A stretch of DNA of 64,000 nucleotides. It comes from Bacteroidota bacterium (GTDB lineage: Bacteria > Bacteroidota > Ignavibacteria > Palsa-1295). Made by a program: the position numbers and the translations under genes. Position 1 is the first letter of the stretch; each line of letters opens with the position of its first letter. Shown in pieces: positions 5,851-32,346 of this stretch. The DNA lies in the NCBI GenBank assembly GCA_021324735.1, contig JAJPIO010000011.1, positions 22,612 to 86,611 on the forward strand, written 5' to 3'. The notes under the pieces were generated by a model, which was not told the DNA's origin, ran no database searches, and was given only the letters and a program-made list of their open reading frames with translations.

Positions 5851-5871
5851 AAGCGAGAACGGCTTATGACG

Positions 5872-6612: not shown

Positions 6613-6621
6613 GCGGCGACG

Positions 6622-9138: not shown

Positions 9139-9202
9139 TTGAGAGACATACTAACGCATCCTTCTTCTAATTCATCATTCATAATTCATCATTTCCTATG
9201 AC

Positions 9203-10507: not shown

Positions 10508-10508
10508 T

Positions 10509-11069
10509 ATGAATATCCTCCACAAACAACTGATCGCAACCTCGGTCGATACTGCGCCATTGCCACACTCCGTTCGCAAGGACGGCAACATGAACCCTCG
10601 TCAGCGGTGGCTAAAGATGGCGACCGGCGACGTCGACCGAGCCGGTGACATTATCGTGATCGCCGGAATCGAGGCGGATAACTTCCTTAAGAATCCCCAA
10701 TTCCTCTGGCAGCACGGCGCGTCCGGCTCGCTCATCAATACGATCGGCCGCATTCTACAATTAGTACAAGCCGAGAATGCGCTCTATGCTCTCGCCGAAT
10801 ATGCGTCCGCCGAGCTATCACCGCTTGCCGAACAAGTCTATCAAATGGATGTGGCTGGCCTGCTGCCTGCCAATTCGATCGGCTTTCGTCCGCTTGAATA
10901 CGAAGCGAATGAGTTCGGCGGATTCACTTTCACCAAATGGGAGCTCGTCGAATGCTCCAAAGTCGAACTGCCGATGAATCCAAATGCAGTGGACAACGGA
11001 GAGTGGAGAATGGAGAACTCTCTCTCTTCGGGTTCTGCAGATCTTGCAGTCGTTTGGCTGCTCCAATAA
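10509..11069 (+). CDS. Prohead maturation protease, HK97 family (peptidase U35)
   Basis: DRAGDIIVIAGIEADNFLKNPQFLWQHGASGSLINTIGRI matches the U35 signature (D..GD.i..GAF...L...P.LLW.H....PIG). The start codon overlaps the portal stop (TAATATG). Confidence 0.7.
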   Translation: MNILHKQLIATSVDTAPLPHSVRKDGNMNPRQRWLKMATGDVDRAGDIIVIAGIEADNFLKNPQFLWQHGASGSLINTIGRILQLVQAENALYALAEYASAELSPLAEQVYQMDVAGLLPANSIGFRPLEYEANEFGGFTFTKWELVECSKVELPMNPNAVDNGEWRMENSLSSGSADLAVVWLLQ

Positions 11070-11141
11070 ATGCGATACGTATCTGATAAGCAACGTATCC
11101 CAATTCTCCATTCACCACTCTCCATTCTTCATTTTTTTTAT

Positions 11142-11210
11142 GAGCGTAAGCTAAAGCATACGCCTACGAATTCACCCCTACGAGCGTAAGCTGAAGCTTA
11201 CGACTACCAC
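11142..11210. repeat. Repeat R4 (two tandem hairpin units of the R-family)
   Basis: GCGTA-agctaaagca-TACGC and CGTAAGC-tgaa-GCTTACG. Stems stay paired through compensatory substitutions relative to R1-R3. It lies between the protease and capsid genes. Confidence 0.65.
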
Positions 11211-11231
11211 ATTTCTCTTTAGTTTTTTCCA

Positions 11232-12497
11232 ATGAATATCAACGAACAAGACAACACCATCACCGCAACACGCGACGAATTCAATACCATCATCGACAAA
11301 GCGCTCGACCGAAAACTCAAGTCAATCCCGGATCGAAGCGCCATAACTGCGCTCAGTTCTAAGTCCTCAGTTCTTAGTTCTGAATCGGGAATATCTCCAT
11401 CACTCGGGAGCACTCAGGACTCAGCACTTAGCGCTAAGATTCAGAAGACATTTCGATTCTTCAATGCTGTAGCGCAGAACGATCATGCCACACTGCGATC
11501 GATCATGCAGAGTTACGAGCCGGAATACGTTCGTACACTTTCGCCGCAGGTCGAAGGAACGGCCTCTGCCGGTGGCTATCTCGTGCCACCGGAATTCTAC
11601 TCCGATGTTCTCTTCCTGCTGAACGAATACGGCTTCGCACGTAAGTATTGCGCGCAGATCCAAATGTCGTCGAACGTGCTGAATGTATCGACGCTCACCG
11701 GCAAGCCCTCCGTTTCGTGGGTAAGCGAGACCAGCACGATCCCAACCAGCAAAGGCACCTTCGGACGCCTCACGCTCACCGCGCAAAAGCTGGCAGCCAT
11801 CTATCCGATCTCTAACGAACTCCTGCAGGACGCGAATGTCGATGTCTACAATACGATTCTTCGCATCTTTGTCGAAGTTTTCGGCGCGGAGGAAGATACC
11901 CAGGTCTTCCGCGGCGTTGGCTCTCCGTTCACCGGCATTCTCAACACCGACGGAGTATCGACCACTTATTTAGGCGCAAGCTCGACCTCCGGTAAAACGA
12001 AATATACTGATATCACGCTCGACGATCTCATCAATCTCGTTCAGTCGATCGGTCCGGCGCAGCAGCGCGACGCCGTGCTCTTTGTCGAGCAAAACACGCT
12101 CACCGATCTTCTCAAGAAAAAGGATTCGCAGAGCCGCTACTTGTGGGATATTGCAACGTCGAACGACCCACAGATTAGTGGCGCGAATGGATTCAGCGCA
12201 ACGAACCTGAAATTCCACGGATATCCGGTGGTAGCGCTGCCAAACGGAGTTATCATCGAGAGTTATGATGGCTCGAGCCACCCGAGCACACCATTCGCAC
12301 TCTTCGGCAACCTCAAGACAGCCGGCTGTTGGCTTGGCTCGCGCGGCGGAATGGAAATGCGTATTTCCTACGACGCTTCCTCCGATAACATGAACGCCTT
12401 CACCAACGATCTGCAGCTTCTCCGTGTGACGGAACGCATTGCCTTTGGCGTCGGCCAGCCGGGATACCTTGCGGTGCTTTCAACGAGTGCGTCGTAA
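11232..12497 (+). CDS. Major capsid protein, HK97 fold, with an N-terminal delta/scaffolding-like region
   Basis: 421 aa. The motif SAGGYLVPPEFYSDV is characteristic of HK97-family capsid proteins. The N-terminal ~100 aa are predicted helical and fit a delta domain. The gene follows the protease. Confidence 0.85.
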   Translation: MNINEQDNTITATRDEFNTIIDKALDRKLKSIPDRSAITALSSKSSVLSSESGISPSLGSTQDSALSAKIQKTFRFFNAVAQNDHATLRSIMQSYEPEYVRTLSPQVEGTASAGGYLVPPEFYSDVLFLLNEYGFARKYCAQIQMSSNVLNVSTLTGKPSVSWVSETSTIPTSKGTFGRLTLTAQKLAAIYPISNELLQDANVDVYNTILRIFVEVFGAEEDTQVFRGVGSPFTGILNTDGVSTTYLGASSTSGKTKYTDITLDDLINLVQSIGPAQQRDAVLFVEQNTLTDLLKKKDSQSRYLWDIATSNDPQISGANGFSATNLKFHGYPVVALPNGVIIESYDGSSHPSTPFALFGNLKTAGCWLGSRGGMEMRISYDASSDNMNAFTNDLQLLRVTERIAFGVGQPGYLAVLSTSAS

Positions 12498-12500
12498 CCT

Positions 12501-13082
12501 ATGCCTACTTTTACTTCTCCAGTGACCGTCGCCGATCTGCAGACGTATCTGCGAGACGTCTCGACGGACACGACCCTTCTCGGCTTTTACCAAACGCTGC
12601 TCGATACCGCGACCGAATCGGTCTACACCTGGCTCGACCGCGATTATACGGCGCTTGCAACGAAGACCGATCGCTTCTGGGGCGATGATACCGAGTTCTA
12701 CGCCCCGCATTATCCCGCGGGCAGCTTCGTGAGTTGGAGCTATATCGATATGAACGGCTTCGTCACCAGCCTCGACATTAGCGATCTCCTCATTCGAGCC
12801 AATGGCTATCTCGTGCAGGCAAAAACAAAGCGGTTCGTTTCGGGCGCAGAACATGCGATCACGTACAAGCAGCCCGCCACGCTCGTATGCCCGGAAACCG
12901 TAAAGCAGGTGATCGTCGAGATCGCAGCCCAGCTCTTCGATGAGAGCAATCAAGGCGCCGGCACACGCGGACTCTTATTGGCTACATCCAACGATGGCAT
13001 AAGCACCGATCGTGAGCGCTTCCTCGACCTCTCGGAGCGACACAAAGAAATGCTCCGGCCTTACAAACGCTATCCGGTCTAA
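12501..13082 (+). CDS. Head-tail connector/adaptor (gp6-like) with extra C-terminal sequence
   Basis: The N-terminus VTVADLQTYLRDVSTDTTLLGFYQTLLDTATESVYTWLDRDY matches the gp6-like connector pattern. At 193 aa it is about twice the usual length. Located directly after the capsid gene. Confidence 0.55.
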   Translation: MPTFTSPVTVADLQTYLRDVSTDTTLLGFYQTLLDTATESVYTWLDRDYTALATKTDRFWGDDTEFYAPHYPAGSFVSWSYIDMNGFVTSLDISDLLIRANGYLVQAKTKRFVSGAEHAITYKQPATLVCPETVKQVIVEIAAQLFDESNQGAGTRGLLLATSNDGISTDRERFLDLSERHKEMLRPYKRYPV

Positions 13083-13163
13083 CAATGCTGAAGGATGGAT
13101 TATAAACGGCGAGAGAAGCTCTCACAACCGATCATAATTCATCCTTCCTAATTCGCAATTCCC

Positions 13164-13607
13164 ATGACAAGAGAACTTCTCTTCTTCAATAACTTCGAGA
13201 CACAATTTGGCGAGTTTAGCGGGTGGCGTTCGCTTGCCGAGCAACGCGGTGTGAAAGATCTTGCACCCGGCGATTATCCTGGCTTCGAGGTCACTCCGGG
13301 CGAAGCCCGATATACCGAATACGATACCTACGGACATCCCTATGGCGGCGAGCAGGATTTTACGCTTCGCATCGTCTTCGCGCATCCGCAGTGTGCATTC
13401 CAACCGGTGCGTACGATGCACGCGGAGTTCGTCTCGCTCGTCGAGCAGTTTTTTACCGGCGGATACATCTCGCCAACGCTCGATCTCAGCGATCGCGCGC
13501 GGATCAATGGTATCACACTGCTCAAGATCGAATCACCGGTCACGAATAAGATCGCCACGCATACCACCATCATTGTGCGAGCACAATACTCGTTCACATT
13601 AATATAA
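13164..13607 (+). CDS. Hypothetical phage structural or head-completion protein
   Basis: 147-aa ORF co-oriented in the morphogenesis operon. It is preceded by the conserved ATAATTCATCCTTCCT upstream motif. No recognisable domain. Confidence 0.45.
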   Translation: MTRELLFFNNFETQFGEFSGWRSLAEQRGVKDLAPGDYPGFEVTPGEARYTEYDTYGHPYGGEQDFTLRIVFAHPQCAFQPVRTMHAEFVSLVEQFFTGGYISPTLDLSDRARINGITLLKIESPVTNKIATHTTIIVRAQYSFTLI

Positions 13608-13644
13608 AACAGAAGACGGAGTGATGAATGGTGAGTGATGAACG

Positions 13645-14178
13645 GTGAATGATACTTTCCGGCGACGCCTATTTCAGCCTACCTTTACCCTTACCCTTTA
13701 CCCCATACCCTACTCTATCCTCTGTCATCTATCCACTACCCTGATGACCAATCTCTTTCTTCGGTATCGCATGACCGATACCGACCCGTGGACCACATTT
13801 CCGGACATCACCAGCGCGTTTCCCGGTCAGCCTACGGGCAGCTTGCCGGTCTCTTCCACGACCATCGCAAGTGAGCCGCTTACCGTCGAGCCCGGCGCTG
13901 GTGGACAACTCTATCTCGAATTCCCTACCACCGACGACGACCATCTTGCCCTGCGGGTAACATGCCCGCCTATTCCTCTCGCGTTAGCAACGACGATCCT
14001 AACATTCCTCATGCAATATCGTCTTGCGCCATCGCATGAAGCAAAGCACGAGCGGTTCGGGCAAGGTGGCTTCATCAGTGCTTCACTTTCGCTCATCAAA
14101 GCGCAGGAGCGCAATGGCATGCTGCATTTGGAGTTTCGCCTTGTAGCAACGATGAACGATGCTCTAATCAACTTCTAA
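13645..14178 (+). CDS. Hypothetical phage protein; the start codon may be internal (13744 or 13771)
   Basis: ORF in the operon with no motif. Alternative in-frame ATG codons lie closer to a plausible N-terminus. Confidence 0.4.
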   Translation: MNDTFRRRLFQPTFTLTLYPIPYSILCHLSTTLMTNLFLRYRMTDTDPWTTFPDITSAFPGQPTGSLPVSSTTIASEPLTVEPGAGGQLYLEFPTTDDDHLALRVTCPPIPLALATTILTFLMQYRLAPSHEAKHERFGQGGFISASLSLIKAQERNGMLHLEFRLVATMNDALINF

Positions 14179-14179
14179 T

Positions 14180-14794
14180 ATGCTCTATACTCTCTTATTA
14201 CTCGCACTCTCGCCCACCACGTCCGTCGAGCAAGCGGTACAACACGCTTTAGCAGCGGATTCCCTCGCAGCCCGGCAAACAATGCTCGTTCCTTTTCGCG
14301 AAGAGATCGACCGTGCGGCCGCAAAATACACACTGCCCTCTTCGCTTATTGCTGGTGTTATACAGGAAGAATCTCGCTTCGATGAATGGGCGACGAGAAG
14401 CGAACCCGGTTATCTCGCGAACAAACGCATTCGGCATGAAGCGATACGCTGGGCGCGCGTGCATCCCGGCAGCGCGACCGCACTCACCGAACTCAACGAT
14501 CGCTCCCGATCGTACGGCCTCATGCAGATCATGGGTGAGACCGCACGGCAGCAGGGCTGCTCAATGCGGTTCCTCGCTGAACTCTACATGCCCGACAGCG
14601 CTATCGATCACGGTGCGCGATTACTGAAACGCCTTATCCTTCGGTATCACGGCGATACACTTTCGGCTATCAGCGCGTATAACCAGGGCAGTGCACGTAA
14701 GCGGCGCGGCACATTCGCTAATGCTCGTTATGTCTATCGGGTAACCGTCGCATGGCGCGCGTACGATACTCTCTTCCGGAAAGGAGATGAGTAA
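14180..14794 (+). CDS. Lytic transglycosylase (SLT domain) with signal peptide
   Basis: Catalytic motif AGVIQEESRFD, plus GLMQIMG and SAYNQG. Has an N-terminal signal peptide. Confidence 0.8.
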   Translation: MLYTLLLLALSPTTSVEQAVQHALAADSLAARQTMLVPFREEIDRAAAKYTLPSSLIAGVIQEESRFDEWATRSEPGYLANKRIRHEAIRWARVHPGSATALTELNDRSRSYGLMQIMGETARQQGCSMRFLAELYMPDSAIDHGARLLKRLILRYHGDTLSAISAYNQGSARKRRGTFANARYVYRVTVAWRAYDTLFRKGDE

Positions 14795-15291
14795 TGCAGA
14801 TCAAATGGCAATATGCAGCAGCGCTCGTTGGCATTGCTTTCTTCATTGGTGTGCTGATCTCTTACAGAAGCTCTGCACCAACAACCAACGGCATCTCACA
14901 CGAGAAGCAAGTCTACCGGATGAGATTTGACACTGCGAAAACAACTGTGGCTGTGCCAGTGGGACGCATACGACTACGAGGACCGATGGCGCACAAACTG
15001 GCTGCTGATTCTACAACAAGCATCGCGTGCTTAGATACTATTCTGAGAATGGATACTACGGCCTTAGCGCCGGATACCCTCTCTGTTTGTTTTGCGCGAG
15101 ATACCTTCTCACTTCGGTTGGGCTTTAGCCCGAGGCAGAAAGAAGTATCGGTGCCGTATATCGCACACGATACATTCTACTCGCAGATCGATACGATCCG
15201 TATTGCCGGGGGAAGCTCGCGAGCGTGGTACGATGATGCGCTTATTATCATCCTTTCTATTGCCGCAGGAATAATTCTGGGACGGCTATAA
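14794..15291 (+). CDS. Membrane protein with N- and C-terminal transmembrane helices (possible lysis accessory)
   Basis: Translationally coupled to the transglycosylase (TAATG overlap). Transmembrane helix at residues 8-24 and a C-terminal helix ALIIILSIAAGIILGRL. Confidence 0.45.
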   Translation: MQIKWQYAAALVGIAFFIGVLISYRSSAPTTNGISHEKQVYRMRFDTAKTTVAVPVGRIRLRGPMAHKLAADSTTSIACLDTILRMDTTALAPDTLSVCFARDTFSLRLGFSPRQKEVSVPYIAHDTFYSQIDTIRIAGGSSRAWYDDALIIILSIAAGIILGRL

Positions 15292-20020: not shown

Positions 20021-21964
20021 TCAGCTTACCGGCTGAGGTTGCGGTTTTTTTGCGCGGACGAGCTCTTTTACCTTTTCACGGATCCCCTCCCGATTCAGCC
20101 CGCACTCGGCCAGAAGCGAAGCTGGCGCACCATGTTCGATAAAACGGTCAGGAAGGCCTAAAACGAGCGGATGCGGAATGGAGGACGTGGGATGCTCCGC
20201 CTGATAACTGGCAAGATATTCGGCCACAGCAGATCCAAAACCACCTTGGACCACATTCTCCTCCAGCGTGACGATATACTTAAAGCGAGCTGCCAAACCC
20301 TGTAACAGCGCTGTATCCAGTGGCTTAACGAACCTGGCGTTTGCAACGGCTACCGAAATACCTTCGCGTTCGAGATCGCCGGCGGCCGTTAGGGCATCAT
20401 AAAGCAACGGCCCCGCTCCGACAATAACGACGTCCTTGCCGTCGCGAAGCATCTCTCCTTGTCCGATCGGGATCGAGCGAAAGCCTTCATCCGCAAGTGG
20501 GACGCCGATCCCGGTACCACGAGGATAACGGATCGCGATGGGACCCGAGACTTGAGATGTAGCGGTGTAAAGCATATCTCTCAACTCCTGCTCGTCCTTC
20601 GGGACCATAATGGTCATGTTCGGAATAAGGCGGAGATAGGAAAGATCGAATGCGCCGTGGTGGGTCGGTCCATCGGCACCGACGAGCCCGGCACGGTCCA
20701 TCGCGAAGATGACCGGCAAATTCTGCAGTGCTACATCGTGAATGATCTGATCGAACGCACGCTGACTGAACGTCGAATAGATCGCGCAGACCGGAGTGAA
20801 GCCTTCGGTCGCCATGCCGGCCGCGAACGTCACAGCGTGTTGCTCCGCAATACCGACATCGAAGAATTTTTCCGGCAATTCTTTTTGCAGGAAGTTAAGT
20901 CCGGTCCCATCCGGCATAGCGGCGGTAATACCAACCACTTTCGGATTGATCTTGCAAATCTCGACGAGTGCTTTGCCAAATACTTTCGTGTATTCCGGAG
21001 GCTGCGGAGCCGTTACCGGCTTCGCGATCGCCGCGCCGGTGATCTTATCGAACGCACCAGAAGCGGCATGATACTTTTGAACGTGCGACTCTGCCGGTGC
21101 ATAGCCTTTGCCCTTCTCCGTGATAACATGAAGAAGTAGCGGCCCTTTTTGATCCTTGAGAAAATTCAGCGTCTCGACGAGCTTGACAACATTGTGCCCG
21201 TTGATCGGGCCAAAATATTTGAAGCCCAGCGCTTCGAACATCATGCCCGGCGTCATGACGGCCTTCATGCCGTCGACAAGCTTGGAACCGGCGGAGCGGA
21301 GCCGGTCGTGACCGTCCAGTTTATCCCATACCTGATCCTTGAATTTGCGGACCGTTGGGTTCGTGATGAGCGCGTTAAAATATTCGTGCAACGCCCAGAC
21401 GTTCGGCGCGATCGACATGCGATTATCATTCAGGATGACGATCACATCTTTCTTCAACATGCCACAATTATTCAGCGCTTCATAGGCGATACCGCCGGTC
21501 ATCGAGCCATCGCCGATGACAGCAGCTACTTTGTAATCCTGGCCAGCAAAATCGCGTGCGGTGGCAATGCCGAGCGCAGCACTGATGGAGGTCGATGCAT
21601 GGCCGGCGCCAAACACATCGTACTCGCTCTCGTCACGTTTAAGGAATGGCGCAAGTCCATCCTTCTTTCGAATCGTATTGAGCTGTGCTTTGCGGCCCGT
21701 AAGAATTTTGTGCGGATAACCCTGGTGGCCGACATCCCAAACGACTTTATCCTTCGGCGTATCGAGCGCATAGTGAAGCGCCACGGTAAGTTCGACGACG
21801 CCGAGGCCAGCCCCGAAATGCCCCCCCGTCTGGGAGATCGTATCGATCAAATATTCGCGGACGTCCGCGCAAACGCCCCGGAGGTCGCTGACCGGATACT
21901 TGCGTAAATCGGCCGGAAAATCGATGTTTTTGAGGAAGGGGTAGGAGTCGAACGCTATGCTCAT
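20021..21964 (-). CDS. dxs: 1-deoxy-D-xylulose-5-phosphate synthase
   Basis: 647 aa. The N-terminus LKNIDFPADLRK...GGHFGAGLGVVELTVALHY and the thiamine-diphosphate and transketolase-like domains are canonical DXS. Confidence 0.95.
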   Translation of the reverse strand: MSIAFDSYPFLKNIDFPADLRKYPVSDLRGVCADVREYLIDTISQTGGHFGAGLGVVELTVALHYALDTPKDKVVWDVGHQGYPHKILTGRKAQLNTIRKKDGLAPFLKRDESEYDVFGAGHASTSISAALGIATARDFAGQDYKVAAVIGDGSMTGGIAYEALNNCGMLKKDVIVILNDNRMSIAPNVWALHEYFNALITNPTVRKFKDQVWDKLDGHDRLRSAGSKLVDGMKAVMTPGMMFEALGFKYFGPINGHNVVKLVETLNFLKDQKGPLLLHVITEKGKGYAPAESHVQKYHAASGAFDKITGAAIAKPVTAPQPPEYTKVFGKALVEICKINPKVVGITAAMPDGTGLNFLQKELPEKFFDVGIAEQHAVTFAAGMATEGFTPVCAIYSTFSQRAFDQIIHDVALQNLPVIFAMDRAGLVGADGPTHHGAFDLSYLRLIPNMTIMVPKDEQELRDMLYTATSQVSGPIAIRYPRGTGIGVPLADEGFRSIPIGQGEMLRDGKDVVIVGAGPLLYDALTAAGDLEREGISVAVANARFVKPLDTALLQGLAARFKYIVTLEENVVQGGFGSAVAEYLASYQAEHPTSSIPHPLVLGLPDRFIEHGAPASLLAECGLNREGIREKVKELVRAKKPQPQPVS

Positions 21965-22073
21965 TTGGTATCGGTAACGAGTAAGCGTAACGAGGCTTTG
22001 GCCGGATTAGTGGCCTGTTGAACAGGGGATTTTTTGAGGCCTGAAGATGTGTGAAAACCGGCCCCCTGAACGG

Positions 22074-22340
22074 CTAGAACAGGTCCTCGTTCTCGAAAAT
22101 ATCGTTACCCTGGACCTTCTCGCCTGCTGTCTCTTCGTGTATGGCAGCAAGCTTCTCGACCTTCAGTTCGGCTTCGGCCAGCACCTCTCGCAGCTTTGCA
22201 GAGAGCGCCATAGCCTCCTCGTAGAGCGACAGCATCTCGCTGAGCGGCACATTGCCCTGTTCCAGCTTATCGACGATAGCCGTCATGCGCTCGAAATCGG
22301 CTTCGAAGGTTTGGATGGGCTTGGATTCTTTCTTGGCCAT
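22074..22340 (-). CDS. xseB: Exodeoxyribonuclease VII small subunit
   Basis: 88-aa helical protein (FEADFERMTAIVDKLEQGNVPLSEMLSLYEEAMAL) directly downstream of xseA. Confidence 0.85.
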   Translation of the reverse strand: MAKKESKPIQTFEADFERMTAIVDKLEQGNVPLSEMLSLYEEAMALSAKLREVLAEAELKVEKLAAIHEETAGEKVQGNDIFENEDLF

Positions 22341-22387
22341 AATAAAAAGGCGAACAATTCTGTCGAATTAATAGCTCTCGACGCCGA

Positions 22388-23734
22388 TCAATCAAACCTC
22401 ACCGTGATCCTGCCATCCGCAAAAACAAGGATGCCATTCTTCTCACCGGCCGAGAGAAGTTTTTCGAGACGTGGTATAATCTCGCCATCGGCTGACTCGA
22501 GCGCAGTAAAGCCACGGTCGAGCACGCGATCAGGATTCATCGCCGAAAGTTTTGCGGTATCGCGTTCGAGCTGAAGACGAAATCGCTCGACGCCATGACG
22601 CATTGCGCGGCTTACTTGTGAAGTCATTCTATCGACATCATTCTTTCGATCCCCGATCGTCGCCTTCATGGAAGCCAGCAGCGTTGCAGGATCAGAAAGA
22701 GTCTCCACTTCCTGCCTCCGCATCGCAAGTTCGTGCGAGACCGTCCGCATGATCGCACTGGTCGAACCATCGATAATATTTTCCAACTCGCGGCGATGCG
22801 GTGTAGCAAGTTCGGCGGCTGCGGTCGGCGTCGGTGCACGAAGGTCGGCTACAAAATCCGCGATCGTCAGATCGACCTCGTGCCCAACCGCACTTATGAC
22901 CGGAATCTTCGAAGCGAAGATCGCTCGGGCTACGGCCTCTTCGTTAAAGCACCATAGGTCTTCGAGCGAACCACCGCCGCGCCCGACGATCAGCACATCA
23001 GGCCGAGGATAATTACGAGTGGAGAATGACGAATTATGAGTTTGCGCCTCATTCGTCATTCGTAATTCGTCATTCGTAACTCCCCGTTCGTCATTCGGAA
23101 TTAAGTTAAATTCCTGTATCGCTCTTGCAATCTCTAACTCCGCACCCACGCCCTGCACAGCAGCCGGACGTAGAATTACATTCACCACCGGATACCGCCG
23201 GCGAAGGCAGGTCAGGATATCATGCAGCGCAGCGCCATTCTCGCTCGTGACGATACCGATCGTTCGCGGAAATCGTGGAATCGGACGCTTGCGGCTCTCC
23301 TCAAATAACCCTTCCGCCGAAAGCTTTGCGTACAGTTCTTCATAGGCCCGCTGAAGCTCACCAATACCCGAGGGCCGCACCTGGAAAACGTCGAGTTGGT
23401 AATTGCCACGCGGCGGGTAGACCGTCAGCCGGCCGCGGCAAACCACCTTCATCCCATCCTTAAGTTGGAAATTGAGCGGACGGCTTTTCCAGAAAACAGA
23501 CGATATTTGGGCTTCGGAGTCTTTGAGCGTCCAATACCGGTGGCCGGAGCGATGATCGATAAAGTTGGAGATCTCGCCTTCCACAACCACATCTGTAAAT
23601 GAACCCTCCAGCAGGCTTCGAATGGCCTTTGTAAGGCCCGTGACACTCAGTGTCGCTTCGGACTCCTCGCGCCCCCGCTCCGACTCGATAAATCCGGCGG
23701 AAGGCTGTTTCATCATTGGTCGCATTGTGGCCAT
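22388..23734 (-). CDS. xseA: Exodeoxyribonuclease VII large subunit
   Basis: N-terminal OB fold followed by the conserved RPDVLIVGRGGGSLEDLWCFNEE block. Contains an in-frame low-complexity insertion encoded by CATTCGT-type repeats at about 23030-23100. Confidence 0.9.
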   Translation of the reverse strand: MATMRPMMKQPSAGFIESERGREESEATLSVTGLTKAIRSLLEGSFTDVVVEGEISNFIDHRSGHRYWTLKDSEAQISSVFWKSRPLNFQLKDGMKVVCRGRLTVYPPRGNYQLDVFQVRPSGIGELQRAYEELYAKLSAEGLFEESRKRPIPRFPRTIGIVTSENGAALHDILTCLRRRYPVVNVILRPAAVQGVGAELEIARAIQEFNLIPNDERGVTNDELRMTNEAQTHNSSFSTRNYPRPDVLIVGRGGGSLEDLWCFNEEAVARAIFASKIPVISAVGHEVDLTIADFVADLRAPTPTAAAELATPHRRELENIIDGSTSAIMRTVSHELAMRRQEVETLSDPATLLASMKATIGDRKNDVDRMTSQVSRAMRHGVERFRLQLERDTAKLSAMNPDRVLDRGFTALESADGEIIPRLEKLLSAGEKNGILVFADGRITVRFD

Positions 23735-23792
23735 GTAAGGAGGAAATCAGCGCCCGGTAAGGGTAAGTTCGCGCCAATGGTGAATTTCTCGA

Positions 23793-23843
23793 AAAATCAG
23801 CAATGATCTCTCGGGAAATCAGTGTAATCTCTCAAGAAATCAG
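23793..23843. promoter_or_regulatory. Three direct repeats of GAAATCAG spaced ~21 bp apart in the divergent xseA / cargo-gene promoter region
   Basis: gAAAATCAGcaatgATCTCTC, gAAATCAGtgtaATCTCTC and gAAATCAGcgatttt at 23793, 23815 and 23836. The helical-phase spacing suggests a regulator binding array. Confidence 0.35.
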
Positions 23844-23951
23844 CGATTTTGAAAAATGGAAGATGGCTACGTTACCTTTGACCCCTATTTTTGTCATCTT
23901 TTAGTACATTCCGTTCAACTTTTATTGTAACCGGCGCAAGAATTCCCGTTC

Positions 23952-26900
23952 TTGCTCGATGGGGGTTGTATGCATATTAAACACATTGTAGCATTCTTAG
24001 CGGTCCTCTTTGCTGCCACCGTAGTCGAGTCTCAAACGATCACAGGCAAGATCAGTACGACCATGTCGAAGCAAATACACGACCCATCTTATTCGATGGG
24101 TCGGGATTACTGGTTTGCACTCATTCAAAATGGTTTTGATCAACCGGGCAAGTATTATCGGGTCTACATCACCTCACAGCATAATACAACGGCCTACGTC
24201 CAGCTCTCAAGTGGAATCGTAACAACCGTGCCTGTAGGAGCCTACAAAATAGGAGCCGTCAATGTACCTCTTGGCTGGGAAATGAAGTCCAGCAGTATTA
24301 TTGAACAGAAGGCGATTCACGTATGGTCGAATGACGCGGATCTTCAGTGCTGTGTAATGTCGCATAGTCCATACACTTCGGACGGCTTTAATTGCATTCC
24401 GACCATAGGCTGGGGCACCGATTATGTTGTGGCCGGATACAACGCGCTATACTATAACTATCTTAACTATACCTACGATTACCCTTCCGAGTTTACCATC
24501 GTTGCTGACCAGGACAACACCACTATCACGATCACTCCTTCTTGCGATCTTCGGCATTCATCTGTGTATCCGGCCAATAACACCATCGTTGGCTATCCTA
24601 AAGGTGTACCGTTTACTATCAAACTCGATCGTCGGCAATCCGTCCAATTCCAGTCGCTCAAGGCCGATACTACATTTGGTTTTGACGTCACTGGTACCAT
24701 CATTCATTCGAATATGCCTGTAGGGGTCGTGGCAGGCTCTTCATGCGCAGAGATACCGGACGGTTATTCCTACTGCGATCACGTCTGCGAAATGATCCAT
24801 CCGGTGCGCTCGTGGGGGCAAACCTATTACACAACCAGCTTTGGGCAGCCCAGTAGCGCTCCGTCACACGATTTTGCAATGTATCTCCTTGTCTCATCAA
24901 AAGCGAACCAGACGATCTACCGGCAGGACGCTGTTATGGGCGTCCATACGGAATGCACGATCGCAAGGAAGTATGGTACATTTTGGGCTGAAGAACAACT
25001 ATCTAATAAGTGGTTCAGCGATGCTCCATTCCTACTTATGGAATACAGCAACAGCGCCACCTATCCTGACGACTCAACCGCCAAGGGCGACCCATCCGAA
25101 GTAAGAATAACGCCTCGCGAGAATTTCACGAGAACGGTCGTCCTTCAAACGCCGGTGAATGTTGGCTCGCAACCCGCGTATGATAATTATGCGAACGTCA
25201 TTGTGCGTACCAATGACGAGCGTAATACAATATTTGATGGTGCTCGTATTCAAATGTATACTCGCCAACCGATCGATGATACGTTCGAAGCGTTCGTGGT
25301 CCCTCACATCCAACCGGGCGCGCACGTTATAACCGGAGATACGCTTGGCGTGGGAGTGTATGTGTATGGTTACGGCTATAATGAGACCTTCGCATGGGGC
25401 ACGCCTGGATTTTTAGGCACTTACCGTTCACCAGATACGATACCTCCGCAAGCGGTCGTAGTAGGTTCATGCACTGAGGGTAGAATCCATATTGCAGATT
25501 CCGGAAATATGAACGGCATCGCTCAATCGCAGCTTGCCTATATCCGACTCGATACCGATTACAACATGGCGTATCTGCCAAACCCTTATCCAAACTGGAT
25601 CGATGGAGCCGGATTGGATACGTCCGGATATAGCTACTATGTCGTAGATCCGACGAAGCCCGCTATTCTTGGTGTCTCCGTCTTCGATATGGCCGGAAAT
25701 CGGACAACGATCACCAGCAGCTATGCGACCCAGCTTGCGGAAGCACGCCCGCCCCTTCTCGATATTGGCGTCACGACCGGACCGCGCATTTATGGTTATG
25801 ACACGCTGGTCAATACGGGTACTGTCCCGTTCGCTTTTACGACCTTAAAGCTACTTTACGGGAATGTTGGCTTCCGGATCGATAGCTTTAACACCGCACC
25901 GCTTGCGGTTGGTGAACGCCGCTTGATCAAGATATCCTTCGGACCCATTTCTACTCACAACACCGTCGATACGCTTCTCTTTGGTGACGATTGCGGTCCG
26001 TTAAGCCGGGTTGCTTTATTAGGTAATGGTGGCGCTCCCGATTTTTGGGTAGCCGATGCCGTGTGGCATAATGTGCCATACGGTCCGCCGGCGTTGAATG
26101 ATTGGATAGAAAAAGCTGCTGCGATTCACAATGCATCCAGGACCGATATCCTTCACATTAACCGACCGGCATGGGATGATACGGTGCACTTTGTTCTGAT
26201 CCCTGGCCAAATATTTCCGCGCACTATACCCCCACAAGGGGTCGACAGCGTGCAATTTTGGTACGCTCCAACGGATTTGAATGGCAACACTGCTATCGCA
26301 TCGTGGACATCCGAAGAGGTATTCGACCAGAATGGCTCGGTAAGCATTCGACAAAATAAACTGATCGGTAACGCAATTGCTTCTGAGATTCACTTTGGCG
26401 GTAGTATCGATACGACGCTTAACTGCTCGCATGATTCCTTAATAACATTAGCATTCGTTATTTCGAATGGCGGTCAATTATCAACCCTTTTGCGACGCGT
26501 AATTCTTACCAACACTGCCGATCTTATTCGCATAATTGGGCATGACATGCATGGCAGCACTTGGGATCCGACCAGCCAACAGCAAGTCCTTTTCCCTGGT
26601 GACTTTGATACTATCTTTATCTACGTTCCTACTCAACCAAACGTCGATCGCACCATCTCGACGGCTCTGGTTGCTCTCGGCAACGGGGATACTCTTGCGG
26701 AGCCGGTTACAGCAACGGTCCACCTTGCATATCACACCGCGATGACAGTCGCACCAGTGACGTTTGGCCCTCTGCCGTATAACTCGATTGCAGACACACA
26801 GGAGTTCGTAGTAAGAAACTATGGCTCGACGCCGATCACATACGATACCATTTATATCGACCCCACAAGCTCGTCCGGCGCCGCATTTTCGATCTCGATC

Positions 26901-27317
26901 CCGGTGGATTTCCCAGTTACACTTAACAGCAATGATGTACTGCTCGGAACAATACGGTTTGATCCATCTCGATTTAATGAGTCCTTACAGACGGCGAACA
27001 TACACTTCGTTTCCGACAAGTGCAATGATACAAACGTAGTTCTGACGGCCTATCTTACTGGCGCTGGGGTTAACGAATCAGAAGCAATCGAAGATAATCT
27101 TTCAATAGATATTAATGGGCATATACTAATGTTCCACTCCTCGGACCACCAATCCGCAAAGCTCGAACTCTTTGATGTATTAGGTGATGAAGTACATCTG
27201 AGTGAGATCGAAGCAAATACCCCTGTCGATGTTTCATCGCTTATTAGCGGTGTTTACTTCTATCGACTGGATATCGGAGGCCACTCTAAAACAGGAAAGC
27301 TCCTTATTAGGAAGTAA
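23952..27317 (+). CDS. T9SS-secreted large protein, paralog family member A
   Basis: Signal peptide (MHIKHIVAFLAVLFAATVVESQ). T9SS C-terminal domain ...ISGVYFYRLDIGGHSKTGKLLIRK. Shares the blocks GRDYWFA, KAIHVWSNDADL, GWGTDYVVAGY, PSEFTIV, FDMAGNRT with the next two genes. Confidence 0.8.
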   Translation: MLDGGCMHIKHIVAFLAVLFAATVVESQTITGKISTTMSKQIHDPSYSMGRDYWFALIQNGFDQPGKYYRVYITSQHNTTAYVQLSSGIVTTVPVGAYKIGAVNVPLGWEMKSSSIIEQKAIHVWSNDADLQCCVMSHSPYTSDGFNCIPTIGWGTDYVVAGYNALYYNYLNYTYDYPSEFTIVADQDNTTITITPSCDLRHSSVYPANNTIVGYPKGVPFTIKLDRRQSVQFQSLKADTTFGFDVTGTIIHSNMPVGVVAGSSCAEIPDGYSYCDHVCEMIHPVRSWGQTYYTTSFGQPSSAPSHDFAMYLLVSSKANQTIYRQDAVMGVHTECTIARKYGTFWAEEQLSNKWFSDAPFLLMEYSNSATYPDDSTAKGDPSEVRITPRENFTRTVVLQTPVNVGSQPAYDNYANVIVRTNDERNTIFDGARIQMYTRQPIDDTFEAFVVPHIQPGAHVITGDTLGVGVYVYGYGYNETFAWGTPGFLGTYRSPDTIPPQAVVVGSCTEGRIHIADSGNMNGIAQSQLAYIRLDTDYNMAYLPNPYPNWIDGAGLDTSGYSYYVVDPTKPAILGVSVFDMAGNRTTITSSYATQLAEARPPLLDIGVTTGPRIYGYDTLVNTGTVPFAFTTLKLLYGNVGFRIDSFNTAPLAVGERRLIKISFGPISTHNTVDTLLFGDDCGPLSRVALLGNGGAPDFWVADAVWHNVPYGPPALNDWIEKAAAIHNASRTDILHINRPAWDDTVHFVLIPGQIFPRTIPPQGVDSVQFWYAPTDLNGNTAIASWTSEEVFDQNGSVSIRQNKLIGNAIASEIHFGGSIDTTLNCSHDSLITLAFVISNGGQLSTLLRRVILTNTADLIRIIGHDMHGSTWDPTSQQQVLFPGDFDTIFIYVPTQPNVDRTISTALVALGNGDTLAEPVTATVHLAYHTAMTVAPVTFGPLPYNSIADTQEFVVRNYGSTPITYDTIYIDPTSSSGAAFSISIPVDFPVTLNSNDVLLGTIRFDPSRFNESLQTANIHFVSDKCNDTNVVLTAYLTGAGVNESEAIEDNLSIDINGHILMFHSSDHQSAKLELFDVLGDEVHLSEIEANTPVDVSSLISGVYFYRLDIGGHSKTGKLLIRK

Positions 27318-27334
27318 GGAGCTTCAAATGGCTT

Positions 27335-29710
27335 ATGGGGAAAACCCCGGCAAACTTTCAATTCAACGCTGATATGAAACACCTTATCTTTGTCTTCTTG
27401 CTGTTAGCACTTGCGATCTCTAATGTCTCGGCGCAATCGGGATTTCGGGAGACGGTAACGCAATCGAAACGAAGCCAGTCCCAGATCCTGGGTCGTGACT
27501 TTTGGTTTGCACCCATACAGAATGATCCCGATACCACTCAGAAGCTTATTCGGCTTTTTATTGCGTCACCAAATGATGCGACTGTATACATCGAGGTTGG
27601 AACACTGCACGATTCGCTTCAACTGCGGGCGAACTGGACCGCGACATACAATCTCCCCTTATGGACGGAATTGAAGTCAAGTGGAATTTCGGAGAAGAAG
27701 GCTATTCATGTATATTGCACGTTTCATTCGATTGCGGTTACTGCATTCTCCACCGTTGCTTTCTCAGGTGAACGCACTATTGCATCGATTAGCGGAGATG
27801 CGTTTCTTCCGATCCCAACTCAAGGGCTCGGTACTGATTATGTTATAGCTGCATGTCCGGCACCTTCCGGTGTAAATGCTGGCGACAATCCTTCGGAGTT
27901 CACGATCTCAGCACCTTACGACAGCACCGCGATCGATATCACACCGACCGCTGATCTGCGCTTATCATCGTCGTACCCGGACAATGACGTTGCTGCTGTA
28001 TTCCCTGCGGGTAAGCAATTTAGAATTGTCTTAAACAAAGGGGAAGCGATTCAGTATCAAACAAATGTGCCCAACACCGCTAAGCTTGTCGATGTATCTG
28101 GTACCAGCGTTTACTCGAATAAGCCGATCGCTATTGTTGCCGGTGCGATGAATACGCAATTCTGGGACCACAATTATGCTGACAATGTTAGTGAAATAGT
28201 GCCATCGTTCCCCATGTGGGGTAAAACATATTATTCTACGCCCATTTCAGGTGGATGGGATACGTACACTCTTATTTCATCCAAACCTAACCAAACAATT
28301 TACCGTACGACGTGCACGAGTCCTCTTAGAGATACATTCGTCATTCCGACAAAGAATGGAGTATTCCATGTTCAAGAGCAGGATGGGAGCAAGTGGACAA
28401 GCGATGCGCCATTCCTTCTTTCGCAATTCGCAAATAGCGATGGTAAGTATGGCAGTCAACTTTATACTAATCCATTTGCCTATACCTCGGGCCTTATCCT
28501 GACACCAGAAGAGAGCTTTACTGATTCAGTCACTGTAGCTGCTCCCTTAAGCGATTCGTTAGTAGCGTGCGCAAGTTTAGCAAGCTTTATTGCTCACCCA
28601 ACCAGCGTTACCACCGATCCGCCTCAATCTCTTAAAACCTGGCAGTGCTCAACCGGGCCGTATGAAGCCGCTTCTTCTTCATCCAATTATTGGAGCAAAT
28701 TGCAAAGGATGAGCTCAGTATTTCCATTCGATGTATTCGTTACAGGTAGCTCCGGTCCATCGCGTTTTTCATTTTCGTATCCAGCCTTCACGAACGTGGT
28801 GGCTATTGGATTGACTGATAGTCTTTCGCCAACCCCTCAATTTGAGAGTAATGATATTTGCATTCATGCTACGCTCGTCGACTCCACCTCCGGTATTGCG
28901 ACCATCGAACTTGATAGCATTTCGAATTTCACCTTTGCTCTCGATCCATCGTTCGAAATTGGTACGAATATGAAGGCCAGCTTCGTTGATTTTTGCGCTA
29001 TCGATAGCCTCAAGACCGGATATGCATCCTTTCACGCATATGATATGGCTGGTAATCGTACTCAGATATCGATCTCCTACATCAAGCCAACTTTTTCGAG
29101 CCGAGGTTTTTTTGCTGAGACGAAGAATTTCGATACTGTCCTTGTAGGTACTCAAAAGACTCTGCCACGCCTAACGATAACGGATACATCAACCGTCTAT
29201 CCGATCACGATCAATAATGTCTGGACCAATAATGAGGCCTTTATCTTCGATGGCTCACGATCGGAAAATAAATTGCCGATCACACTGACGCCTGGCATTT
29301 CTCATACCTTCTCAATCTCATTTCACCCTACGGAGGCGCGGACGTATGTAGGCGCGATCTCTATCGCTGATGGCGGTGATGTTCCGGCTCAAAGTGTAAG
29401 TATTTCCGGCATTGGTTATACCCAGGGGTCGAATGCAGTCAATACTCTTGGCTCCGGGTTCTATTGTAACATCTCGCCAAACCCTGCGGGAGAAATGGTG
29501 ACCGCACAATTTGGCCTCACGCAGCAAGCAGTTACATCGTTTAGCCTTTATGATCTTCTCGGCAACACCGTCTACTCCTGGCGAGGTGAAGAAGAGGCTG
29601 GCGATCATTTACAGCAATTTGATCTTGGTCACCTTAAGCGTGGTACTTACTTCTGGCGGTTCGAGTCGGGGAGTCAGACGGCCTCCGGTAAGCTCGTGCT
29701 CGATAAATAA
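27335..29710 (+). CDS. T9SS-secreted large protein, paralog family member B
   Basis: Signal peptide. T9SS C-terminal domain ...GTYFWRFESGSQTASGKLVLDK. Paralogous blocks GRDFWFAPIQND, GLGTDYVIAA, PSEFTISAPYDSTAIDITPTADLR, YDMAGNRTQISISY. Confidence 0.8.
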   Translation: MGKTPANFQFNADMKHLIFVFLLLALAISNVSAQSGFRETVTQSKRSQSQILGRDFWFAPIQNDPDTTQKLIRLFIASPNDATVYIEVGTLHDSLQLRANWTATYNLPLWTELKSSGISEKKAIHVYCTFHSIAVTAFSTVAFSGERTIASISGDAFLPIPTQGLGTDYVIAACPAPSGVNAGDNPSEFTISAPYDSTAIDITPTADLRLSSSYPDNDVAAVFPAGKQFRIVLNKGEAIQYQTNVPNTAKLVDVSGTSVYSNKPIAIVAGAMNTQFWDHNYADNVSEIVPSFPMWGKTYYSTPISGGWDTYTLISSKPNQTIYRTTCTSPLRDTFVIPTKNGVFHVQEQDGSKWTSDAPFLLSQFANSDGKYGSQLYTNPFAYTSGLILTPEESFTDSVTVAAPLSDSLVACASLASFIAHPTSVTTDPPQSLKTWQCSTGPYEAASSSSNYWSKLQRMSSVFPFDVFVTGSSGPSRFSFSYPAFTNVVAIGLTDSLSPTPQFESNDICIHATLVDSTSGIATIELDSISNFTFALDPSFEIGTNMKASFVDFCAIDSLKTGYASFHAYDMAGNRTQISISYIKPTFSSRGFFAETKNFDTVLVGTQKTLPRLTITDTSTVYPITINNVWTNNEAFIFDGSRSENKLPITLTPGISHTFSISFHPTEARTYVGAISIADGGDVPAQSVSISGIGYTQGSNAVNTLGSGFYCNISPNPAGEMVTAQFGLTQQAVTSFSLYDLLGNTVYSWRGEEEAGDHLQQFDLGHLKRGTYFWRFESGSQTASGKLVLDK

Positions 29711-29763
29711 GACTGAATTCCGGCTGAATTAGCCGCAATAAAGATATTTTACACCAGAGCTGT

Positions 29764-29796
29764 AACTCGGAGCCGTGTTCCGAGTTTTAGTTTTGG
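29764..29796 (+). terminator. Intrinsic terminator after paralog B
   Basis: AACTCGGA-gccgtgt-TCCGAGTT hairpin followed by TTAGTTTTGG. Confidence 0.55.
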
Positions 29797-29868
29797 CATG
29801 GTTAACTCTACTCCGTTGTTACAGAGATCCAAGGTCCAACCCGATTTTGACAATTATCTCGTATCCCT

Positions 29869-32265
29869 ATGTTACCCCGACTTCGCGGCACCATCGGTGC
29901 TGCACTATTGTGTGCCCTCTTTACTCACTATTCTAACGCTCAATCGCTGTTCCACGATACGGCGTATCATTATAAGGCGGATCTTACCTCCGTTCAGGGA
30001 CGCGAGTTCTGGTTTGCGCCACCGGCGCTCTTCGCAGTACCCTCGGGCAAATATTATGAGCTTTGCATTTCAGCCCAGAAGAACACGACGGTCCACGTAG
30101 TATGTGGTAGCTGGCAAACAACAGCGGCCGTCAAGGCAGGCATCACAACCGCGATCTCACTACCGCTCACGCAAGAGCTTAAGACGAGTGGTATCGTCGA
30201 AAAAAAGGCGTACCACGTTTGGTCAGACGATGCGGACCTCGACGTAATTCTCGCCGCCGATATTCCCTCTCAAGCCGGCGATGTAATGCATATTCTGCCC
30301 ACCTACGCACTTGGTACTGATTATGTCGTTGCCTCGTATCCCGCGCTTTTTATGGGCGGTGGTAATTCGCAATATGATTATCCATCGGAGTTTACGATCG
30401 TTGCCCAGCACGATAGCACGGTCGTGACCATCTTGCCTTCAACGGACATGCGGCAGGAAACGGAGATCGTGCCGAGTCCGGATCACATCGCGTACGCTCA
30501 TGGTCAACAATTTACGGTCGAACTGCACCGTGGGCTAGCGGTACAGTATAAAACGGTTACGTCGCAATCTCCGGATTACGATGTAAGCGGTACAGTAATT
30601 CACTCGACCTATCCCGTCGCCGTGATAGGCGCTTCTATGCGCGCATACGTACCGGTTGGATATCCGCACTTTGACTATGTCGCTGATATGGTCCCGCCGA
30701 TACGCTCATGGGGGAAAACGTATTATTCGATGCCGTTCTACCAGCCGGCAGGCGTGTCCAATCATGATGCGAGCTCTTTCCTTATCATCGGCACCAAGGC
30801 TGGTCAAAATATTTATCGTTACGATCAGGCTTCGGGCGATCAAGTTCTTGCATTGCTCGATAAGCCGTACGATATTTCATACGCTCCTGATATCAGCAAG
30901 CCGAGCCTATGGCATAGCGACGCACCGTTCCTGCTTGTGCAGTATATCAATAGCGCTACGTATCCCGATAGTCTGCTAAAAGCGAAAGGCACTCCGGCAA
31001 TGATGGTGTTGCCACCAGTCGAAGAGTTTGGAACGACCGCCACGCTTCAACCGCCTCTCAAAACGGCGACGTTCAATTCAGACATTGCAATGTACGTTAA
31101 TATCATTGCGAGTGACGATGCTACAACGGTCACCTTCGACGGACAACGCATCAATAGCTGGTATAAGCGACCCATCGATGGTAAGTATTCGATCTATCGG
31201 GGTGTAAGCGTTGCACAGGGGCCGCACGTCGTTAAATCCGATAAGCCGGTAGGAGTATATGCTTACGGGTATTCGAACGCGACATCGGGCGAAAGTATCG
31301 GTTATCCGGCCCAGAACGGGCTCATCGCTCTGCCAGGCTCGGATACGACCGGACCTACGATCGCCTGGGAGAACGGAACCGGTTGCGGCCATGCTACTAT
31401 TCGCGACGAGGTGTCTGGTCTCTCTCATTTCCGCGTTGATACGATCGCGAATATGACCTCGACCCGTGACACCCTCTATATGGCTGGCGATAGCACCCGT
31501 GAAACCTATCTCGATGCGTGCCTTATCGATGCTGGTAAGAATGGCTTTCTTCGGCTTACCGCCTTTGATATGGCCGGAAATCGGAGCGTAAGCGAATTTA
31601 CCTATACCGCACCAACATCAACGACTCTTAAACCGGGCTTTACCTTAGCGGCATCATCGTTCGATACCGTTCGCGTTGGCACAACGAAGACGCTTGCTCT
31701 CGCTATTCTCACGGATACCTCCTCCATCTGGCCGATCACCTTCGACAGCATTTGGACCGATAACGCAGCATTTACAAGCTACCAGAATGGACTTCCCTTG
31801 ACACTCCTTCCTGGATCGAGCGATACGCTCGGCATTAGCTTTACGCCGACCAAAAACAATATTTACTCGGCATTCCTGTATGCTCATAGCCCATCTGTAG
31901 GGACGCAGAAGGCGGCCCTCCATGGCAGTGGCTATAGCTCGGATGCCGTGAGCACACCCGTTGATGATCCTTCAGCATGGCTTGCAAGCGGTTCTGGTAA
32001 TTTGTTCTTACTCCCTCCTTCACCAAATCCAACTTCCAGCGAGCTCTCTATCGCTTATGCACTCCGCAGCACTTCAACGGTATGGTTCGGACTCTATTCA
32101 TGCACTGGCGAGCTCGTCTACTCATGGAAAGAAGCTGCCCAGCAAGCTGGAATACATAGTCAAACGTTTAATTTGAACGCTCTTCCAAATGGAGGTTACT
32201 TCTACCGCTTGGAAGCAAACGGTGAGAGCAAGATAGGAAAGATCGCAGTAAAGAGGCGAAAGTAA
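29869..32265 (+). CDS. T9SS-secreted large protein, paralog family member C
   Basis: Signal peptide. T9SS C-terminal domain ...GGYFYRLEANGESKIGKIAVKRRK. Paralogous blocks GREFWFAPP, ALGTDYVVASY, PSEFTIVAQHDSTVVTILPSTDMR, FDMAGNRSVSEFTY. Confidence 0.8.
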   Translation: MLPRLRGTIGAALLCALFTHYSNAQSLFHDTAYHYKADLTSVQGREFWFAPPALFAVPSGKYYELCISAQKNTTVHVVCGSWQTTAAVKAGITTAISLPLTQELKTSGIVEKKAYHVWSDDADLDVILAADIPSQAGDVMHILPTYALGTDYVVASYPALFMGGGNSQYDYPSEFTIVAQHDSTVVTILPSTDMRQETEIVPSPDHIAYAHGQQFTVELHRGLAVQYKTVTSQSPDYDVSGTVIHSTYPVAVIGASMRAYVPVGYPHFDYVADMVPPIRSWGKTYYSMPFYQPAGVSNHDASSFLIIGTKAGQNIYRYDQASGDQVLALLDKPYDISYAPDISKPSLWHSDAPFLLVQYINSATYPDSLLKAKGTPAMMVLPPVEEFGTTATLQPPLKTATFNSDIAMYVNIIASDDATTVTFDGQRINSWYKRPIDGKYSIYRGVSVAQGPHVVKSDKPVGVYAYGYSNATSGESIGYPAQNGLIALPGSDTTGPTIAWENGTGCGHATIRDEVSGLSHFRVDTIANMTSTRDTLYMAGDSTRETYLDACLIDAGKNGFLRLTAFDMAGNRSVSEFTYTAPTSTTLKPGFTLAASSFDTVRVGTTKTLALAILTDTSSIWPITFDSIWTDNAAFTSYQNGLPLTLLPGSSDTLGISFTPTKNNIYSAFLYAHSPSVGTQKAALHGSGYSSDAVSTPVDDPSAWLASGSGNLFLLPPSPNPTSSELSIAYALRSTSTVWFGLYSCTGELVYSWKEAAQQAGIHSQTFNLNALPNGGYFYRLEANGESKIGKIAVKRRK

Positions 32266-32346
32266 AGAGATAAAAATAAAATTAGCCCTTCCAACTTGGA
32301 AGAGCTAATTCGTAAATGCGAAGAATTGTGCTCTCGTCTAGAGTAT

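Follow-up and report, generated by a model that had tools for sequence, protein, structure and literature searches.

What do the large N-terminal regions of three consecutive genes in a Bacteroidota genome have in common, and why do the genes stand side by side? The genes, here called g1, g2, and g3, lie on contig JAJPIO010000011.1 of assembly GCA_021324735.1, within a stretch of 64,000 nucleotides (nt; contig positions 22,612 to 86,611, hereafter the window, whose numbering is used throughout). An earlier note on this DNA had described a tandem triplication of type IX secretion system (T9SS) cargo proteins, with a shared module that it did not recognize and with diversifying selection proposed for the divergence of the copies. 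The array is a real and correctly seen feature: the genes are divergent paralogs in tandem, each encoding a large T9SS cargo protein. The three are anciently diverged members of a large T9SS-cargo family expanded in Kapaibacterium-like Bacteroidota, and their common module belongs to a domain family already catalogued. The genes are consecutive open reading frames (ORFs):

23970..27317, plus strand: g1, 1115 amino acids (aa), starting at the ATG (23970) used by public gene calls on the same contig
27335..29710, plus strand: g2, 791 aa, with a possible alternative ATG at 27374 that would give 778 aa
29869..32265, plus strand: g3, 798 aa

In the ORF list, g1 reaches a TTG at 23952 (23952-27317, 1121 aa); its protein is identical to P0028 in the homolog set. 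A three-way alignment gave identities of 31-34%, the shorter proteins being collinear over about their first 690 residues and then over the final ∼80, and the similarities of g3 to g1 (E = 1.6e-92) and of g2 to g3 (E = 9e-113) place homology well beyond chance, bearing out the paralogy and the collinear blocks reported in the earlier note. All of the motifs quoted there were found in the three proteins, KA(I/Y)HV(W/Y) exactly as given and PSEFTI(V/S)A...D(L/M)R and (F/Y)DMAGNR in each, with small deviations confined to g3, which carries the GRE form of G-R-D/E-Y/F-W-F-A and reads ALGTDYVVA at the xGTDYV(V/I)A motif. Independent assemblies from ENA and JGI contain the same three-gene array, with an identical g3 sequence, and g3 alone is also present on a short Logan assembly contig; the contig is carried by samples JGI 3300027965, ENA ERZ27279670, and SRR5579883.

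Judged by its profile matches, the shared N-terminal module is Pfam PF17517 (IgGFc_binding, alias FCGBP_N), a model of 297 positions with a gathering score of 25.6 bits. The matches span the whole model as one stretch in all three proteins, and the head is N-terminal in each, starting ∼20 residues past the hydrophobic signal sequence:

24390..25370, plus strand: g1 PF17517 core, residues 147-473 of the 1121-aa ORF (E = 1.8e-51, 175.6 bits, model positions 4-297 of 297)
27797..28747, plus strand: g2 PF17517 core, residues 155-471 (E = 9.6e-30, 104.3 bits, model positions 1-297)
29944..31323, plus strand: g3 extended FCGBP_N head, residues 26-485, modeled as one rigid all-beta module
30289..31269, plus strand: g3 PF17517 core, residues 141-467 (E = 3.6e-52, 177.9 bits, model positions 4-297)

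The conserved unit is longer than the Pfam model. With g3 residues 26-485 as the query, an exhaustive phmmer search of 1.84 billion cluster representatives recovered 3,751 proteins at E ≤ 1e-3, 1,470 at E ≤ 1e-10, and 118 at E ≤ 1e-30, and because most alignments cover query residues ∼17 to ∼445, the unit is put at ∼430 aa (∼430-460), ∼100 aa longer N-terminally than the Pfam model, which describes only about two thirds of it. The N-terminal extension of ∼100 aa, a predicted beta-sandwich, carries the GR[DE][YF]WFA and KAxHV motifs. Inside the Pfam core, an internal repeat was detected in g3 between residues 141-189 and 274-318 (hhalign probability 94.7%). A Cys pair in the loop CPNIP...PYCDH, which most family members have, is kept in g1 and absent from g2 and g3.

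The module that had gone unrecognized is therefore a catalogued one, although the biochemical function of the head is indeed unknown. The earlier note had reasoned that a common, well-characterized domain, such as a known glycoside hydrolase family, would make the triplication ordinary; the domain turned out to be common and catalogued but uncharacterized, and it is not a glycoside hydrolase family. Since the module is catalogued and very common, the locus adds one more ordinary case to a widespread family and represents no new protein class, which mostly removes a false lead and leaves the locus no more informative than thousands of others. Lang et al. (2016; PMC4948705) defined FCGBP_N, taking the N-terminal part of human FCGBP, a mucus protein, as their starting point, and reported the domain in 564 bacterial proteins. 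Most of these came from Flavobacteria, Cytophaga, Sphingobacteria, and Myxococcales, with enrichment in gliding Bacteroidetes and Myxococcales and as many as 103 copies in Labilithrix luteola. In these secreted proteins the domain is usually N-terminal and combined with PKD, CHU_C, or SprB domains, and a link to gliding was offered as speculation (PMC4948705); the IgG binding behind the domain name was not reproducible for human FCGBP (PMC11796319).

Beyond the head, g1 is laid out as signal peptide, FCGBP_N head, DxAGN immunoglobulin (Ig)-like domain, at least three ASH-type Ig stalk domains, and a type A T9SS C-terminal domain (CTD), and g2 follows the same plan with a single ASH-type stalk domain. 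The CTD cut-offs were 23 bits for TIGR04183 and 27 bits for PF18962:

25758..27080, plus strand: g1 stalk of ASH or choice-of-anchor-D type Ig-like domains, residues 597-691, 689-806, and 923-1037 of the 1115-aa protein, found by jackhmmer with the g3 Ig domain
27129..27308, plus strand: g1 type A T9SS CTD (TIGR04183 36.4 bits; PF18962 28.4 bits)
29471..29698, plus strand: g2 type A T9SS CTD (TIGR04183 36.6 bits; PF18962 36.6 bits)
31336..31623, plus strand: g3 Ig-like domain with the FDMAGNR (DxAGN) motif, model strands at residues 497-579 with a predicted local distance difference test score (pLDDT) of about 90 and sub-threshold similarity to DUF7743
31630..31944, plus strand: g3 ASH, HYDIN, or choice-of-anchor-D type Ig-like stalk domain, residues 588-692
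32023..32253, plus strand: g3 type A T9SS CTD (TIGR04183 25.0 bits; PF18962 32.9 bits), a beta-sandwich at residues 725-794 in the model

The claim that all three proteins end in T9SS sorting domains thus holds for each copy. The g1 stalk accounts for the ∼330 aa by which this protein exceeds g2 and g3, and the gap between residues 806 and 923 is probably a fourth stalk Ig domain; a choice_anch_D match at 919-1021 fell below the NCBIfam cut-off. Detectable ASH-type domains number at least three in g1 and one each in g2 and g3, and stalk length varies across the family as well, from one to five detectable ASH-type domains in proteins of 485-1498 aa. As isolated segments, the stalk of g1, the DxAGN domain, and the extension at the N-terminus gave no significant Pfam match. 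By inspection, each of the three proteins begins with a Sec signal peptide, consisting of a hydrophobic h-region followed by ESQ or AQS, and the residue after it (Q25) is near-invariant in a 42-sequence alignment. A Gln at this position fits the Bacteroidetes "Q-rule" that is reported for signal peptidase I substrates (Bochtler et al. 2018).

Structure prediction gave a confident all-beta model of the conserved module, for which no solved relative was found. The AlphaFold2 model of g3, built on the same 42-sequence alignment, was all-beta with pLDDT 88.9 and a predicted template modeling score (pTM) of 0.71, and resolved into a helix at residues 3-22 (the signal peptide), the head at ∼28-480, the Ig-like domain with FDMAGNR at ∼497-579, a second Ig-like domain, of ASH type, at ∼591-689, and the sandwich of the CTD at ∼725-794. 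A whole-chain Foldseek search of the PDB returned only generic Ig-repeat proteins (HYDIN, PorU, and alpha-2-macroglobulin; TM about 0.1), which was uninformative about the head, and the head was therefore modeled alone, with pLDDT 91.1 and a pTM of 0.91, as expected for one rigid unit. With this model there was again no credible whole-module match in the PDB (best E = 6.5e-4, probability 0.23, TM ≤ 0.16), the weak neighbors being adhesin repeats, pilins, bicupins, and lectin-like proteins. The single real match in the BFVD library (TM 0.50, E = 6e-10) was Q6XLX4, the uncharacterized phaeovirus protein FirrV-1-C4 of Feldmannia irregularis virus a; an FCGBP_N-like fold thus seems, on the predicted models, to be present in a virus of brown algae, outside the groups covered by Lang et al. 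(2016). Searches of the PDB by sequence and by profile matched only the stalk and the CTD, with nothing at profile positions 1-575; the stalk was recovered as HYDIN/ASH (E = 5e-28 with the family profile), and the CTD resembles solved T9SS CTDs (8glj_D CTD).

Taken together, g1-g3 are best read as surface-displayed binding proteins, a reading to which we assign a probability of roughly 0.6. The proteins would be exported by the Sec system through their signal peptides and would then cross the outer membrane through the T9SS, directed by the type A CTD; surface display would be the most likely outcome, with a PorU-type sortase cutting the CTD and attachment to anionic lipopolysaccharide (A-LPS) anchoring the protein. 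The all-beta FCGBP_N head of ∼430-460 aa would thereby be presented at the distal tip of a stalk built from a DxAGN Ig-like domain and from ASH-type domains, of which g2 and g3 have one and g1 three to four, where it may serve as a non-catalytic binding module for a presumed extracellular polymer or surface, and the array would amount to a repertoire of heads differing in specificity and reach. Binding is favored over catalysis because the head matched no enzyme or catalytic family in Pfam, NCBIfam, PDB sequence searches, or fold searches, because its weak fold neighbors are adhesin-like, and because of the types of domain with which it is combined.

Several points weigh against this reading. 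Nine polar head residues conserved across 150 diverse family members (in g3 numbering, E111, K113, H116, D138, D182, R195, D238, D424, and H453) could just as well make up a catalytic or metal site; release, not anchoring, is the fate of some type A CTD cargos; and, as the 64-kb window holds no T9SS machinery gene, secretion is deduced from the CTD alone. The single whole-module PDB search and the single viral-library search could miss similarity at the level of sub-domains. The literature search for functional data on bacterial FCGBP_N proteins yielded only Lang et al. (2016) and, within the literature covered, no experimental test of any such protein, and the failure to reproduce IgG binding by human FCGBP (PMC11796319) counts on the same side.

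The alternative that fares best is that the head is an undescribed secreted enzyme, for example polysaccharide-degrading or proteolytic, whose paralogs differ in substrate range. It draws on the persistence of the polar residues across those 150 members, on the fact that T9SS islands commonly carry hydrolases (a neighboring 1455-aa cargo has a weak F510_1955 glycosylhydrolase-like or BNR region), and on the dockerin found in one distant relative. We nevertheless regard it as unlikely: the catalytic families of Pfam and NCBIfam went unmatched, no enzyme stood among the fold matches of meaningful probability, the partner domains are solely of adhesin or stalk types, and the g2 head, in an ORF that is still intact, no longer has 12 of the 52 highly conserved positions, H453 included.

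The evidence on the age of the array bears directly on the proposal of the earlier note. In a neighbor-joining tree of 68 full-length heads, g1, g2, and g3 fall in three separate deep clades (mutual identity 31-36% in the tree set); the g1 head is 52-54% identical to copies in five other loci (L008, L019, L010, L014, and L024), and the g3 head is 55% identical to a copy in L001. Nei-Gojobori proportions of synonymous differences (pS) between the paralogs were 0.77-0.84, saturated and beyond the Jukes-Cantor limit, so that the ratio of nonsynonymous to synonymous substitution rates (dN/dS) is incomputable for them; ortholog pairs at about 50% amino acid identity would be saturated too. At the DNA level, the genes have in common only matches of 21-40 nt at 73-86% identity, the two longest at the codons for FDMAGNR and GTDYV, and no gene-conversion tracts, cassette-like repeats, invertible elements, or relevant inverted repeats were found among the three genes. 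Given the deep clades, the closer counterparts elsewhere, and the saturated synonymous sites, the duplication is, from sequence divergence, an ancient one, with each copy conserved since, which argues against recent diversifying or antigenic variation.

A recently triplicated surface family under diversifying selection, whether for antigenic variation or for evasion of phages or predators, is accordingly improbable. The predicted surface exposure, tandem arrangement, and divergence of the proteins would suit it, as would the variation of array size and content between genomes and the long branch of g2, but it is contradicted by the separate clades with their 52-55% identical counterparts, yields no dN/dS signal, finds none of the DNA tracts, invertible elements, or cassettes that were sought, and sits poorly with gene sequences that are identical across independent assemblies.

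The most divergent copy is g2, which forms a long branch, shares no more than ∼32% identity with the other heads of the tree, and has a best database match of 37% over its full length. Departures from consensus at the 52 conserved positions number 12 in g2, two in g1, and one in g3; those of g2 lie mostly in the C-terminal third of the head and include H453. Its GC content at third codon positions is the lowest of the three (0.466), and that of the flanking genes closest to the array (dxs, xseA, and the 288-aa and 974-aa cargo genes) is 0.57-0.65. A word-indexed homolog search with g2 gave one weak match and missed the protein's own cluster, the representative of which is a 333-aa fragment, so this result is not evidence for an orphan; negatives of this kind of search are not to be taken as absence for divergent queries.

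PF17517 is carried by 46 of 46 close homologs, and those with a source name are proteins of Candidatus Kapaibacterium, Kapabacteria, or unclassified Bacteroidota metagenome-assembled genomes (MAGs), Kapaibacterium being placed within Bacteroidota in the NCBI taxonomy. A scan with one genome per species yielded 37 family loci, often several per genome, from MAGs titled Kapaibacterium, Ignavibacteriae or Ignavibacteriota, Bacteroidota or Bacteroidetes, or unclassified bacterium. When a family hidden Markov model was run over the six-frame ORFs of these loci, same-strand arrays were found with six full copies (L032), four to five copies (L006 and L027), four copies (L011 and L024), and three copies (L008, L013, L014, L021, and L030). 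Same-strand tandem arrays of two to six copies are thus the rule for the family in Kapaibacterium-like genomes, and such strict arrays appear to have no earlier description. Within the window, g1-g3 are the only head-bearing genes, the other T9SS cargos having just Ig or CTD parts in common with them, and distant relatives embed the head among He_PIG, SdrD_B, Big_9, PKD, cadherin-like, MG2, and dockerin domains.

The weakest alternative, that g1-g3 are SprB-like mobile gliding-motility adhesins in line with the speculation of Lang et al., can appeal to the enrichment of FCGBP_N in gliding Bacteroidetes and Myxococcales, at times together with SprB and CHU_C (PMC4948705). SprB and RemA of Flavobacterium johnsoniae are likewise T9SS-secreted, repeat-rich proteins of the cell surface. 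The gliding-adhesin reading is very improbable, as g1-g3 have type A CTDs (TIGR04183) and not the type B or CHU_C domains typical of SprB (CHU_C scored E = 0.056, in g3 only, with no match to a type B CTD), no SprB repeats or lectin (SUEL) domain, a far smaller size than SprB-class adhesins, and no gld, spr, or other motility genes nearby in the window.

Set beside the bacterial FCGBP_N proteins described previously (PMC4948705), the surface-binding proteins proposed here have the same domain with full-length model matches, a head placed N-terminally behind a signal peptide, Ig-like or PKD-type partners, a Bacteroidota C-terminal secretion domain, and multiple copies per genome. They differ in their Kapaibacterium-like Bacteroidota hosts, which were not among the groups of 2016, in a unit of ∼430-460 aa with the ∼100-aa N-terminal extension over the Pfam model, in a stalk of ASH/HYDIN-type and DxAGN Ig-like domains, and in a CTD of type A instead of CHU_C. 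The N1 domain of human FCGBP is a member of the homologous family that is likewise N-terminal, secreted, and of unknown function, but there it is followed by 13 VWD-C8-TIL units in a gut mucus component with neither T9SS nor Ig stalk, and it is missing from mouse FCGBP. Among T9SS type A cargos, such as the CTD proteins that PorU anchors to A-LPS in P. gingivalis, a Sec signal peptide that has Gln past its cleavage site and an order of head, Ig-like spacers, and a beta-sandwich CTD of ∼75 aa matching TIGR04183 and PF18962 are common ground, whereas the g1-g3 head is unrelated to gingipains, hemagglutinins, and known T9SS enzymes.

The remaining interest lies in FCGBP_N itself, a domain without solved structure or known function in bacteria and in a human mucus protein alike. 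Compact bacterial versions such as g3, with one head, two Ig domains, one CTD, and a confident model, are convenient targets for structure and ligand work, and the ancient same-strand arrays with variable stalk length in Kapaibacterium-like genomes suggest a surface-binding repertoire in a poorly studied lineage. More tentatively, the fold of the head could be one that has no solved representative and binds glycans or mucus-like polymers outside the cell, with the Kapaibacterium arrays, whose two to six ancient heads stand on stalks of unequal length, acting as a binding repertoire at the surface; we hold this specific version to be doubtful, but were it true, the ligand would reveal the role of the N-terminal domain of animal FCGBP.

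The surroundings of the array are a T9SS-cargo island. Upstream of g1, on the opposite strand, are xseA, xseB, and dxs, and downstream of g3 are T9SS cargos of 288 aa, 974 aa, 403 aa (with a cohesin domain), 644 aa, and 2046 aa; the island covers ∼30 kb (window 15379-46000), from the 1455-aa protein through g1-g3 to these five. The 1455-aa cargo combines its weak BNR/F510_1955-like region with choice-of-anchor D, and a 1428-aa protein at 48343-52629 has a CTD near threshold. At least nine CTD-bearing genes were found in the window, and none for SusC/D, gliding (gld/spr), or the T9SS machinery; the earlier note had suggested a comparison of homolog contexts with polysaccharide-utilization-like or gliding loci, and around g1-g3 neither was seen.

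The g1-g2 gap is only 17 nt, which makes their co-transcription probable, and g3, behind a spacer of 158 nt, may have its own promoter. A scan for sigma-70 promoters gave matches not above the shuffled expectation, the consensus probably being inappropriate for Bacteroidota promoters. Two terminator-like hairpins were located by consensus:

29764..29786, plus strand: terminator-like hairpin in the g2-g3 spacer, consensus match only
32279..32311, minus strand: terminator-like hairpin, its stem 15 bp long, between g3 and the 288-aa cargo gene, which are convergent; consensus scan only, with the T-run on the minus side

The second hairpin directly fits termination of the 288-aa gene and might also terminate g3 from the other side.

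In related genomes, g3 orthologs (47-55% identity) adjoin xseA, a T9SS cargo of ∼1400 aa, or both. The g3 ortholog stands alone in L001, L042, L043/44, L005, and L007, and after it on the same strand come the ∼1400-aa cargo and a phage-like cluster. Its place in L042 is also just downstream of xseA, from which it is separated only by a 152-aa remnant similar to the Ig domain of g2. The content of the array thus shifts from genome to genome, and g3 is the conserved anchor. In the window, the ∼1400-aa-type cargo and the phage-like cluster are on the far side of dxs-xseBA from g3 (20021-32265 compared with L001, L042, and L043), and this difference in order implies that the dxs-xseBA-g1-g2-g3 segment was inverted or rearranged; no long inverted repeats were found at the boundaries of the apparent inversion.

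The phage-like cluster itself (window 4082-15291, plus strand) encodes a large terminase, portal, protease, HK97 capsid, head-tail adaptor, lytic transglycosylase (SLT), and several unknown proteins; it is head-only, with no tail genes recognized. The same SLT gene block adjoins the ∼1400-aa cargo in several related genomes that have only about 50% protein identity in common, and the capsid gene is also present in L001. Recurrence beside the cargo at such divergence suggests an element that is conserved and possibly domesticated, perhaps resembling a gene transfer agent, and not a recent prophage.

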